Of a stretch of DNA of 64,000 bases, positions 57,256 through 59,283 are shown one piece after another. Made by a program: the position numbers and the translations under genes. The notes below the pieces were generated by a model that saw only the letters and a program-made list of their open reading frames with translations, was not told the origin of the DNA and searched no databases. The DNA is taken from the NCBI GenBank assembly GCA_964536485.1, contig CAZHXX010000003.1, forward strand, positions 28,101 to 92,100, given 5' to 3'. How positions within the stretch are numbered: position 1 is the stretch's first letter; the number at the start of each line of letters is the position of its first letter. Source of the stretch: an uncultured Candidatus Saccharibacteria bacterium (GTDB lineage: Bacteria; Patescibacteriota; Saccharimonadia; Saccharimonadales; SZUA-47).

Positions 57256-58821
57256 ATGACCACGAAGAAGCAGAATGAAGTTTTGGAAATTATTAAAAAG
57301 TTTAAATCCGATGAAGGCGACTACCCTACCTTACAACAGATAGCTAGTTTACTTGGCCTGAAGTCCTTTTCTACAGTACATAAACATATTGCCGAGCTAT
57401 TAAAATCCGGCTTGCTAACCGCGAGTGATTCTCAGACTGGCTACGAGGTTAAAACAGAAATCAAAGATACTCAGTTCGTCCCTTTGCTTGGCTATATAGC
57501 AGCCGGAAAACCCATAGAAGCTATTGAAGATGACTCGCCTGTGCAAATAAAGGTTGTTAGAAAGTCACAAGAACCAAATAATCTATATGCCTTGAAAGTC
57601 AAAGGGGATAGCATGGTGGAAGACGGGATATTTGATGGTGATACTGTAGTGATTAGGAAGCAGGACTACGCCTATGATGGCCAGACAGTGGTTGCCATAA
57701 TCGACGGAAACGAGGCTACGCTTAAAAAAATATATAAAGAAAAAACTGGCTACAGACTACAGCCCGCCAACCAAAGCATGTTACCTATATTTTCAGAAGA
57801 AGTTGAAATACGAGGGGTGATTTGGGAAATTCAGCCAGCCGTAAATAATGAGATTGCTTTGAGAGACCCGTTGGTTAAAAACTATCGAACTTTAGATCTT
57901 TTTGCCGGTGTTGGTGGCATAAGAATCGGTTTTGAACGTGCTGGATTTAGTACAGTATTCTCTAATGATTTCGAAAAGCAGTGTAAAGATACCTACGACC
58001 TGAACTTTGATAAGGCTAAACTAATAGTTGACGACATTAGAAATATTCAGCCCAAGGAACTGCCCGACTTTGACTTCTTACTTGGGGGCTTCCCCTGCCA
58101 GGCATTTTCTATCGCTGGCTATAGACATGGTTTTAACGACCAAAAAGGCAGAGGTAACTTATTCTTTGATATCGCTAGAATTATTGAAGAGAAAAAACCA
58201 ATGGGTTTTCTGCTTGAAAACGTCAAGAACTTAAAAACTCATGATGGCGGAAACACTTTTAAAGTTATCTCAGAAACACTTAAAGAGCTCGGGTATTCTA
58301 TAAAATATAAAGTCCTTAATAGTATGGAATATGGAAACGTGCCACAAAATAGGGAGAGAATATATATCGTAGGATTTCGTGACCCTAAGCTAACTGAATC
58401 GTTTAGCTTCCCAGAGCCACTACCACTGACAAGAAAAATTGAAGATATCTTAGAAAAACAAGTAGACGAAAAATATTACTATAACGGCAAGCCTCTATAT
58501 GAAAAACTTAAAGATGCTGTAAATGAGATTGGTAAAGTCTACCAGTGGCGCCGTCAATATGTAAGAAAAAATAAGAAGGGTGTCTGCCCTACTTTGACTG
58601 CAAATATGGGTATGGGCGGGCATAACGTTCCAATAATTTATGACGGCAAAGGCATTCGAAAACTCACTCCGCGCGAATGCTTCCGTATTCAAGGTTTCCC
58701 GGACACTTTTAAGCTACCAAAGAATTTGGCCGATTCTAGACTCTACAAACAGGCCGGAAACTCCGTAAGTGTTCCAGTTTTAGAAAGAATTGCTCTACAG
58801 ATGAAAGCTACTCTACTCTGA
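57256..58821 (+). CDS. fusion of a LexA-like repressor (wHTH + S24 peptidase) with DNA cytosine-5 methyltransferase
   Basis: N-terminal part: HTH, Ala-Gly site in YIAAGKPIEA, Ser in KGDSMVEDG, Lys in EATLKKI. C-terminal part: Dcm motifs DLFAGVGGIRIGF (I), GGFPCQAFSIAG (IV), ENVKNL (VI), QAGNSVSVPV (X). Start set to ATG 57256 behind AGGAG. Confidence 0.85.
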   Translation: MTTKKQNEVLEIIKKFKSDEGDYPTLQQIASLLGLKSFSTVHKHIAELLKSGLLTASDSQTGYEVKTEIKDTQFVPLLGYIAAGKPIEAIEDDSPVQIKVVRKSQEPNNLYALKVKGDSMVEDGIFDGDTVVIRKQDYAYDGQTVVAIIDGNEATLKKIYKEKTGYRLQPANQSMLPIFSEEVEIRGVIWEIQPAVNNEIALRDPLVKNYRTLDLFAGVGGIRIGFERAGFSTVFSNDFEKQCKDTYDLNFDKAKLIVDDIRNIQPKELPDFDFLLGGFPCQAFSIAGYRHGFNDQKGRGNLFFDIARIIEEKKPMGFLLENVKNLKTHDGGNTFKVISETLKELGYSIKYKVLNSMEYGNVPQNRERIYIVGFRDPKLTESFSFPEPLPLTRKIEDILEKQVDEKYYYNGKPLYEKLKDAVNEIGKVYQWRRQYVRKNKKGVCPTLTANMGMGGHNVPIIYDGKGIRKLTPRECFRIQGFPDTFKLPKNLADSRLYKQAGNSVSVPVLERIALQMKATLL

Positions 58822-59283
58822 AGACTTTGAGTTTAGTCTTTTCGCTACCTCTATGAGAAGAGGCCAATTCTCTTTGTATGATTGTAGCTTTGCAATCGAT
58901 TTTGAATCTCCCCATTCTTGTATATCATCAACCGGTATTATGTAACAGTCACCGTTAGTGCCGTCTACACCTAAAATAATGTCACAATCTTCAGGAGAAT
59001 ACTTGTATTTTCTACTAGCGACAGTTCTGCTAATTTGTTGTCCACTTCGGGTGCCACCTGTAAAACCTATACTTCCGTTTCCGCTTCCTTTTATCTGAAT
59101 TCTGAGAAGTCTTTTTGTGTCAACGTCGACTATAGCATCATATTTGCCATTAGTAATGTCTACTCTAGAACAAGGAAATCCAGCTTTCATACATCTTCCG
59201 ACGCCGATCATCTCATCCGCGTTACCGTTGATAGTTCGAAAATTGCCTTCTGGAATTTTAGTCGTATTTGTTGGCCAGCTCAT
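58813..59283 (-). CDS. small PD-(D/E)xK-like endonuclease, candidate restriction partner
   Basis: 156 aa; YDAIVDVDTKRLLRIQIKGS; convergent with the methyltransferase and overlapping it by 9 nt. Confidence 0.5.
   Translation of the reverse strand: MSWPTNTTKIPEGNFRTINGNADEMIGVGRCMKAGFPCSRVDITNGKYDAIVDVDTKRLLRIQIKGSGNGSIGFTGGTRSGQQISRTVASRKYKYSPEDCDIILGVDGTNGDCYIIPVDDIQEWGDSKSIAKLQSYKENWPLLIEVAKRLNSKSSE

Follow-up and report, generated by a model that had tools for sequence, protein, structure and literature searches.

In restriction-modification (R-M) systems of the SsoII type, the genes for the methyltransferase (M) and the restriction enzyme (R) diverge around a shared operator. In other type II systems, M and R are under the control of C proteins, which are usually co-transcribed with R; we know of no damage-sensing switch that has been described for C proteins. 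Also, to our knowledge, CRISPR is largely absent from the bacteria of the candidate phyla radiation (CPR, or Patescibacteria), whose defense relies on R-M systems. The cytosine-5 (C5) DNA methyltransferases of the SsoII type (SsoII, Ecl18kI, EcoRII, and MspI) bear a DNA-binding region of their own at the N terminus, through which transcription of the R-M genes is regulated (PMC3978073). Here, we consider a locus at positions 57,256 to 59,283 of a 64-kb stretch of DNA ("the window") from an uncultured Candidatus Saccharibacteria bacterium, in which a C5 methyltransferase is fused to a LexA-like repressor and is followed by a convergent gene for a small nuclease.

Our best explanation, which we consider moderately probable as a whole, is that this locus encodes a type II R-M system whose C5 methyltransferase, probably specific for GCNGC, is made solely as a fusion to LexA and is subject to damage-responsive self-repression. 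The fusion gene is a single open reading frame (ORF) of 521 amino acids (aa) that encodes, in order, a LexA winged helix, an S24 autoprotease, a flexible linker, and a complete C5 methyltransferase. Its features are as follows:

57256..58821, + strand: lexA-dcm fusion gene, 521 aa, ATG start (ORF, Pfam, NCBIfam, and relatives).
57262..57429, + strand: winged-helix DNA-binding domain of LexA, residues 3-58; the recognition helix is STVHKH (Pfam PF01726, LexA_DNA_bind, E = 5e-9).
57481..57822, + strand: S24 autoprotease and dimerization domain, residues 76-189, with Ser119 at 57610-57612 and Lys157 at 57724-57726 (Pfam PF00717).
57502..57507, + strand: predicted autocleavage site, Ala83-Gly84 (alignment with A84-G85 of E. 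coli LexA).
57823..57882, + strand: variable linker between the S24 and methyltransferase domains, residues ~190-209 (sequence and length vary in alignment A1; AlphaFold model).
57883..58806, + strand: C5 methyltransferase domain, residues 210-517, with catalytic Cys281 at 58096-58098 and the target recognition domain (TRD) at ~58453-58650 (Pfam PF00145, TIGR00675).

The original prediction, which was made from the sequence alone, described a complete LexA/S24 protein with its cleavage site and catalytic dyad, joined in frame to a full Dcm-type enzyme. Profile searches bear out both halves. The protein scored 135.8 bits against the NCBIfam equivalog family for lexA (TIGR00498; cutoff of 110.95), with a match that covers positions 5-195 of the 203 in the profile, and the match to Peptidase_S24 (PF00717; E = 2.2e-26) spans positions 1-115 of 116. 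The N-terminal 190 residues align, from residue 3 onward, with the structures of LexA from Thermotoga maritima and E. coli. In the HMMER alignment to E. coli LexA (7b5g, 1jhh), A83-G84 of the query corresponds to A84-G85, and the two catalytic residues that had been picked out, S119 and K157, fall on S119 and K156. The remainder of the protein matches DNA_methylase (PF00145; E = 1.7e-94) over positions 1-323 of 324 and scores 349.6 bits against NCBIfam's dcm family (TIGR00675). Motifs I (DLFAGVGG), IV (GFPCQ), VI (ENV), VIII (QNRERIY), and X (GNSV) are all legible in the translation. The best solved relative of the methyltransferase part is M.HhaI (E = 2.7e-67), and the alignment reaches residues 3-320 of M.HhaI.

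The AlphaFold (AF2) model has three folded modules, including a winged helix with helices at residues 4-20, 26-33, and 39-51. The joints, at residues 67-71 and 197-206, have low confidence, and the predicted local distance difference test (pLDDT) is below 50 across residues 197-206. A Shine-Dalgarno sequence (AGGAG, 57244-57248) lies 7 nt before the ATG of the fusion gene. The translation has no Met codon within residues 190-315, so the methylase can be produced solely as a fusion.

A frameshift or an assembly error that joined two separate genes is ruled out: the same gene, letter for letter and with the same neighbors, is present in an independent Logan assembly, and at least 120 protein clusters share all three domains. 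Among the best 120 of 8000 scored relatives, all of the proteins have about 520 aa and are 62-75% identical to the fusion, and nearly all have the three Pfam domains. The search for the same fusion in other genomes, as the original prediction had proposed, thus returned at least 120 clusters. Those with names are from Candidatus Saccharibacteria or Patescibacteria and are labeled "transcriptional repressor LexA" by NCBI, and clustering at 50% identity merges the family into one full-length representative. In an alignment of 26 members (A1), G84, S119, K157, and all of the methyltransferase motifs are invariant, as is the TRD (VYQWRR.Y.R.NK.GV.PTLTANMGMGGHNVPI). A83 is at least 90% conserved; the exception, P0069, has Gly-Gly.

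We also used a LexA-module profile to scan metagenomes from the Joint Genome Institute (JGI) and retained the 80 best loci, which is a sample that is neither exhaustive nor unbiased. All of the loci fetched up to that point together include 79 complete ORFs with a LexA module: 28 fusions to a C5 methyltransferase, 34 fusions to methyltransferases of the D12 or N6/N4 classes, 1 unclassified, and 16 stand-alone LexA proteins. The Ser/Lys dyad is invariant in all 79 modules, and the Ala-Gly cleavage site is present in each of the 62 classified fusions (28/28 C5 and 34/34 D12/N6/N4). In a rough neighbor-joining tree, LexA modules from all three classes of methylase intermingle with stand-alone LexA, which suggests that the fusion arose repeatedly or that modules were exchanged. 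The original prediction held that a whole autoprotease module on a methyltransferase is unusual. This is correct with respect to the literature, but the fusion is not rare: judging from these sequences, Patescibacteria carry it widely, and methyltransferases of three unrelated classes take part in it. LexA-methyltransferase fusions are also present on two predicted viral contigs.

Two other groups of proteins turned up in these searches. Nine loci from IMG/VR (L165-L173), on predicted viral contigs of 6-9 kb, encode a stand-alone CPR-type LexA of 199-211 aa, followed by three further proteins: one of ~270 aa, one of 520-595 aa whose N terminus resembles a signal peptide, and a Zot-like P-loop ATPase. 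These look like filamentous (inovirus-like) phages that infect CPR bacteria and have a repressor of the LexA type. In addition, seven relatives of Dcm (P0129, P0132, P0176, P0209, P0213, P0245, and P0247), with ~490-540 aa, have N-terminal extensions of ~170-220 residues that are unlike LexA; these may be other regulator-methylase fusions.

The second gene of the locus is the convergent nuclease gene, whose 3' end overlaps that of the methyltransferase gene by 9 nt. Both the nuclease fold and the overlap had been described in the original prediction, and the fold is confirmed by AF2 together with Foldseek. The gene, its candidate promoter, and the families of proteins that occupy the same position at other C5 fusions are as follows:

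58813..59283, - strand: 156-aa PD-(D/E)xK-fold nuclease, presumed restriction endonuclease (PDDEXK_5; AF2 and Foldseek).
59290..59317, - strand: candidate promoter for the nuclease, TTGATA-16-TACTAT plus TG (consensus scan only; weak).
Window, L082, and L086: partner family 1, the 156-aa nuclease with the I-Ssp6803I fold.
Orthologous C5-fusion loci: partner family 2, RE_Bsp6I, 187-203 aa.
Orthologous C5-fusion loci, the cultivated TM7i among them: partner family 3, RE_NgoFVII_C, 369-389 aa.
C5-fusion loci: partner families 4 and 5, without a family assignment, ~275 aa and ~350 aa.

The match of the 156-aa protein to PDDEXK_5 is barely over the Pfam cutoff (28.8 versus 26.1 bits). It has 408 homologs at 64-86% identity, in which E24, D49, D53, Q63, and K65 are invariant. 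For the AF2 model of the nuclease (pLDDT of 80.8), the top Foldseek match is I-Ssp6803I (2OST, E = 3.6e-8, TM scores of 0.68-0.74), followed by Hjc resolvases. We found no Shine-Dalgarno sequence before the nuclease's ATG, so its mRNA may be leaderless or nearly so.

At all 29 of 29 C5-fusion loci, a convergent (minus-strand) gene adjoins the 3' end of the fusion gene, with gaps of -11 to +29 nt, and these convergent partners belong to at least five families. Because recognized restriction-enzyme families occupy the convergent slot in orthologous loci, the locus is probably a type II R-M system, in keeping with the R-M arrangement that was originally proposed; this forms part of the explanation that we rated above as moderately probable. 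The 156-aa nuclease family is also paired with an unfused Dcm in L029 and L057, which brings it to at least five loci in which it is paired with a methylase. More broadly, unfused methylases that share the TRD, from Saccharibacteria, Alphaproteobacteria, streptococci, and others, pair with the same nuclease families, such as Bsp6I- or NgoFVII-like enzymes. Most of the non-C5 LexA fusions likewise adjoin a convergent partner, and a few have a second methylase next to them instead. Those partners of D12 and N6/N4 fusions that Pfam recognizes are restriction enzymes of the BsaWI, MvaI/BcnI, and BsobI types.

We considered whether the locus might not be a restriction system at all: the LexA domain could target epigenetic methylation to particular promoters, and the nuclease could be a travelling homing or repair endonuclease. 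The family of the nuclease is named "group I intron-associated PD-(D/E)XK endonuclease," its top fold match is the homing endonuclease I-Ssp6803I, and a GCTGC site lies inside each copy of the operator described below. However, Bsp6I- and NgoFVII-type restriction enzymes occupy the same slot in orthologous loci, the TRD is common to ordinary unfused R-M methylases, and the usual repair partner, vsr, is a separate gene in L009. Furthermore, no Rfam intron or tRNA was found near 58.8-59.3 kb, so the nuclease gene is without a group I intron context. We therefore consider this scenario very improbable. The vsr gene of L009 (4953-5369, - strand) lies beside the fusion, divergent and upstream, and in L012, a Vsr-like ORF (5689-6030, - strand; N-terminal sequence only) adjoins an unfused relative. 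These neighbors are consistent with active formation of 5-methylcytosine by this family of methylases.

As for the specificity of the methyltransferase, Bsp6I cuts GCNGC and NgoFVII cuts GCSGC. GCNGC was also the most depleted of the palindromes that we tested in the window: there are 112 sites versus 220 expected, for an observed/expected ratio (O/E) of 0.51, and the depletion holds for all four middle bases. GCNNGC is not depleted. It is a reasonable inference that the enzyme probably modifies GCNGC. The specificity of HhaI (GCGC) is unlikely: GCGC is not depleted in the window (O/E of 1.16), the TRD residues of the fusion are unlike those of M.HhaI, and the partner families point to GCNGC or GCSGC. 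Separately, GATC is strongly under-represented in the window (O/E of 0.55 under a Markov model), which hints at exposure to a GATC-specific restriction system.

The region upstream of the fusion gene contains two 14-nt direct repeats that had been proposed as operators. The features of this region are as follows:

57142..57155, + strand: distal operator copy TGCTGCAATTTTCG, which contains a GCTGC (GCNGC) site (exact match to TGCTNCANNNTTCG).
57183..57191, + strand: DnaA-box-like 9-mer TGTGGAAAA, with one mismatch to TGTGGATAA, between the operator copies (sequence).
57206..57219, + strand: proximal operator copy TGCTGCAAATTTCG, which contains GCTGC and overlaps the -35 region and spacer of the methyltransferase promoter (exact match to TGCTNCANNNTTCG).
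57231..57236, + strand: candidate -10 hexamer TATAGT (sequence; position equivalent to TATAAT of 41 related promoters).

These two are the only exact matches to TGCTNCANNNTTCG in the 64 kb, with no further copy of the operator elsewhere in the window. The promoter with TATAGT was not called by a consensus promoter scan because its -35 element is atypical.

Comparison to relatives identified a family-wide direct repeat. In 41 of the 79 upstream regions from the fetched loci, TTCG-N7-TTCG abuts a TATAAT-like hexamer, always on the coding strand, while other spacings between the half-sites occur 0 or 1 times. The element is found both at stand-alone lexA genes and at fusions of every class. One subgroup has TTCT-N7-TTCT instead, and the recognition helix tracks this difference across the 79 modules: helices of the form STAH[YFH][HY] go with TTCT-N7-TTCT, and ST[VI]H[EQK]H is found elsewhere, with few exceptions. 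This co-variation of helix and operator is the best evidence available that the direct repeat is the putative binding site of the LexA module. It agrees with the literature, in which some LexA proteins are stated to bind direct repeats; the LexA motif of Patescibacteria is reported to be one (cited in PMC7739468).

The window's own repeats fit this layout with a modification. A half-site that touches the -10 box would begin 11 bp, or one period, after TTCG at 57216-57219, as expected for the upstream half of TTCG-N7-TTCG, and the variant in the window is TGCTGCA-N3-TTCG, with a degenerate partner half-site. The subgroup with the STVHKH helix (the window, L084, and L085) has a conserved element, (A/T)TGCTGCA-N3/4-TTCG, and L086 has the same element with a different helix (SAIHNH). 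The window and L085 have two copies of the element around CTGTGGAAAAGT, and L084 has one copy and one degenerate copy around CTGTGGATAAGT. The 14-nt repeats, which thus recur in L084, L085, and L086, are a lineage variant of the predicted LexA-type operator. A GCTGC site, which is an instance of GCNGC, sits in each operator copy at about -35, so one could speculate that methylation of the promoter adds a second feedback.

Other candidate operators did not hold up. The original prediction had also pointed to a weak inverted repeat (CCATCA-N11-TGATGG, 57043-57065). It is present, but by a rough estimate, a random sequence of 267 nt would contain about one inverted repeat of 6 bp with a spacer of 20 nt or less, and the promoter-proximal 130 nt of relatives did not show it, so it is probably due to chance. 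When we read through the upstream regions, we saw no palindrome of the Cheo-box type (GAAC-N4-GTTC); the motif that we did find is a direct repeat. Also, a TTCTCGG...TTGGAG string upstream of the window's nuclease gene is part of a repeated structured element (see below).

The similarity of these operators to those of stand-alone lexA genes raises the possibility that the fusion is the cell's own LexA, perhaps its only one: a master SOS repressor of many promoters, with the methylase as a passenger and the link to R-M secondary. As mentioned above, the fusion is above the equivalog cutoff for lexA, its orthologs bear LexA's name at NCBI, and the type of operator is the same as at stand-alone lexA genes of related organisms. 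We did not find a second LexA in the 64-kb window (a tblastn hit with E. coli LexA, at 15122-15601, is an amino-acid kinase), and none of the 120 best profile matches is a stand-alone LexA with a Saccharibacteria name. On the other side, the module is constantly tied to a restriction-type gene, and its other neighbors differ at every locus, where it lies amid defense genes or ORFs of unknown function. Other Saccharibacteria (L010 and L014) have the same Dcm unfused, the 64 kb contain the window's operator variant at this promoter only, and the window is just ~8% of the genome. Overall, we view a master repressor as possible but doubtful, and the two explanations are not exclusive.

A broader form of this proposal, about which we are similarly tentative, is that LexA-methyltransferases are the sole LexA in Saccharibacteria and in other Patescibacteria, and that a mobile R-M module owns the cell's SOS switch. 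If so, a single protein would repress SOS-type promoters and methylate the genome, and it would receive input from DNA damage, from the state of replication (via the DnaA box), and from self-restriction.

The DnaA box is most evident in the relatives. A perfect box (TGTGGATAA or its complement TTATCCACA) occurs in 39 of the 79 regions upstream of lexA or lexA-methyltransferase genes, as compared to 0.1 in shuffled sequences. It is found immediately upstream of the -35 element and the operator, in 34 of 62 fusions versus 4 of 16 stand-alone lexA genes, and the loci that have it include L002, L007-L009, L019, L084, L097, L113, and L130. L084 carries CTGTGGATAAGT, and L085 carries CTGTGGAAAAGT, as the window does. 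The one-mismatch form is not rare within the window. The presence of a DnaA-box-like site beside the operator suggests that these methylase genes are under replication-linked control.

Returning to our best explanation, these elements could work together as follows. A dimeric LexA-methyltransferase would bind the operators at 57142-57155 and 57206-57219 and shut down its own transcription, so the level of the methylase would be self-limiting and would be high only when the system first enters a cell. Single-stranded DNA and RecA filaments, which could appear because the partner nuclease has cut under-methylated host DNA, would trigger S24 cleavage between Ala83 and Gly84. The coupling to RecA and DNA damage was offered as an inference in the original prediction and has the same standing here. 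The DNA-binding domain would be freed, the promoter would be derepressed, and more methylase would be made. We found neither room nor a terminator-like site between the convergent genes, so stronger transcription of the methylase would probably also dampen expression of the nuclease. Taken together, this would amount to a damage-sensing brake on self-restriction, to which the DnaA-box-like site would add coupling to replication. The appeal of this model is that the double-strand breaks that the nuclease makes in under-methylated host DNA would themselves raise the level of the methylase.

Cleavage could instead have the opposite effect. R-M systems cause post-segregational killing, and cleavage of E. 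coli LexA creates a C-terminal VAA degron. The locus might then be an SOS-triggered suicide switch, or a form of abortive infection: RecA-stimulated cleavage would expose degrons and lead to destruction of the S24-methyltransferase fragment. With methylation lost, the nuclease, which is stable, would kill the damaged or infected cell. The residues before the predicted cut (YIAA) do resemble the VAA degron, and all of the methylase is made as the fusion, with no internal start codon. However, a YIAA degron would tag the small N-terminal fragment and not the one that bears the methyltransferase, and cleavage would also derepress the fusion's own promoter, which would replenish the methylase. We consider a suicide switch to be unlikely.

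Several observations weigh against the damage-sensing brake. The S24-methyltransferase fragment might be degraded after cleavage and not stay active, in which case the effect would be the opposite of the one predicted. In the fetched loci, we did not find the operator motif ahead of the nuclease genes, which leaves control of R to the argument from convergent transcription alone. The nearest structural relative of the nuclease is a homing endonuclease and not a characterized restriction enzyme. The depletion of GCNGC is not specific: the pooled O/E is 0.72 in C5-fusion loci versus 0.76 in N6/N4-fusion loci. Finally, frequencies across the fetched loci are biased by the selection of the best 80, and ORF calls in those loci were mechanical.

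The surroundings of the module have some features of their own. From ~52000 to 63500, the G+C content is 0.39-0.42, versus 0.44-0.50 elsewhere in the window, and almost none of the ORFs have a match in Pfam; one of them encodes a Pro/Glu/Thr-rich protein of 254 aa (61474-62238). This region has the look of a variable island. Divergent from lexA-dcm is a gene (56518-56988, - strand) for another protein of 156 aa, which has a PD-(D/E)xK-like motif (PDF...IEVK) and weakly matches TnsA_N. The last 132 nt of this gene are duplicated at 55376-55507 with 93% identity (the partial copy is 55376-55528, - strand). It has no homolog in the 163 other loci, so it is probably a mere neighbor that does not belong to the R-M module. 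A structured element of ~215 nt (59328-59543, + strand) lies immediately upstream of the nuclease gene, with another copy at 46428-46638 (83% identical) and partial copies at 44460-44548 (- strand) and 61174-61240. RNA folding of 59330-59590 gives -102 kcal/mol (z = -7.1 for the + strand and -5.5 for the - strand), and a terminator-like hairpin (59549-59568) follows the element. This region had no match in Rfam. The element may be a repeat like a miniature inverted-repeat transposable element (MITE) or a multicopy small RNA.

If a damage-responsive repressor does lie inside the methylase, this would be an undescribed control logic for type II R-M systems, and R-M methylases would sit within, or control, the SOS network across a large part of the bacterial tree. 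The LexA fusion may be a lineage-wide means of equipping type II R-M systems with a sensor of autoimmunity. The proposal is directly testable: cultivated Saccharibacteria such as TM7i have an ortholog. Our analysis also provides context for hundreds of proteins that are annotated only as "LexA" or "DNA (cytosine-5)-methyltransferase 1," and the comparative set yields a well-supported operator (TTCG-N7-TTCG) along with an unexpected DnaA box. Full-text literature searches, whose coverage did not extend to REBASE or to a 2017 paper on the SOS response of Patescibacteria, found no description of a LexA-methylase fusion, and a 2025 review of R-M biology does not mention LexA (PMC12707154).

Among known systems, the fusion works most like the SsoII family, in that the dose of the repressor is the dose of the methylase, but it is not a member. 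The appendage of the SsoII-type enzymes is a plain helix-turn-helix (HTH) of ~70 residues without a protease, which binds an inverted repeat, while here it is a complete LexA of ~200 residues with an intact Ser/Lys autoprotease; also, the fusion locus has convergent genes and a predicted operator that is a direct repeat of the LexA type. C proteins (PMC3488213, PMC2275141, PMC6237814) similarly are a dedicated factor that times and balances M and R, as proposed here, and some C-controlled systems, such as AhdI, are convergent as well. However, C proteins are small, separate proteins with an Xre-type HTH, and there is no C gene at the fusion locus. The LexA proteins of E. coli (1JHH/7B5G) and T. 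maritima (3K2Z) share the winged helix, the Ala-Gly hinge, the S24 Ser/Lys dyad, and a box at the gene's own promoter, a predicted one in the case of the fusion, but a canonical LexA stops after ~200 residues, whereas the fusion runs on into an enzyme of 310 residues and is encoded in an R-M module.

The LexA box of Alphaproteobacteria, GTTC-N7-GTTC (PMC8565304), has direct half-sites and an 11-bp period, as the operators of the fusions do, and their core, (G/T)TTCG, overlaps GTTC; the window's lineage departs from it with TGCTGCA-N3-TTCG and a degenerate partner half-site. The alleviation of type I restriction after DNA damage has the same outcome that we propose, which is a lower risk of self-restriction, and the fusion could be its transcriptional analogue. 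That alleviation acts by ClpXP proteolysis of HsdR or by an effect on assembly (PMC12707154), while we propose derepression of the methylase via self-cleavage of LexA.

Of the characterized enzymes, I-Ssp6803I (2OST, PDDEXK_5) is similar in size to the 156-aa nuclease, is in the same Pfam family, and is its best fold match. But the two are just 17-19% identical, the window's nuclease is paired with a methylase and lacks an intron context, and its motif is D...QxK instead of the textbook (D/E)xK. M.HhaI is the closest solved methyltransferase over the whole catalytic domain, but its TRD differs, and its target (GCGC) is undepleted in the window. The Bsp6I (GCNGC) and NgoFVII (GCSGC) systems are linked to the fusion by their restriction enzymes: the partners in orthologous fusion loci come from both families. 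Taken singly, LexA, C proteins, and self-regulating methylases are familiar; what is new is the combination, its breadth, and its operator.

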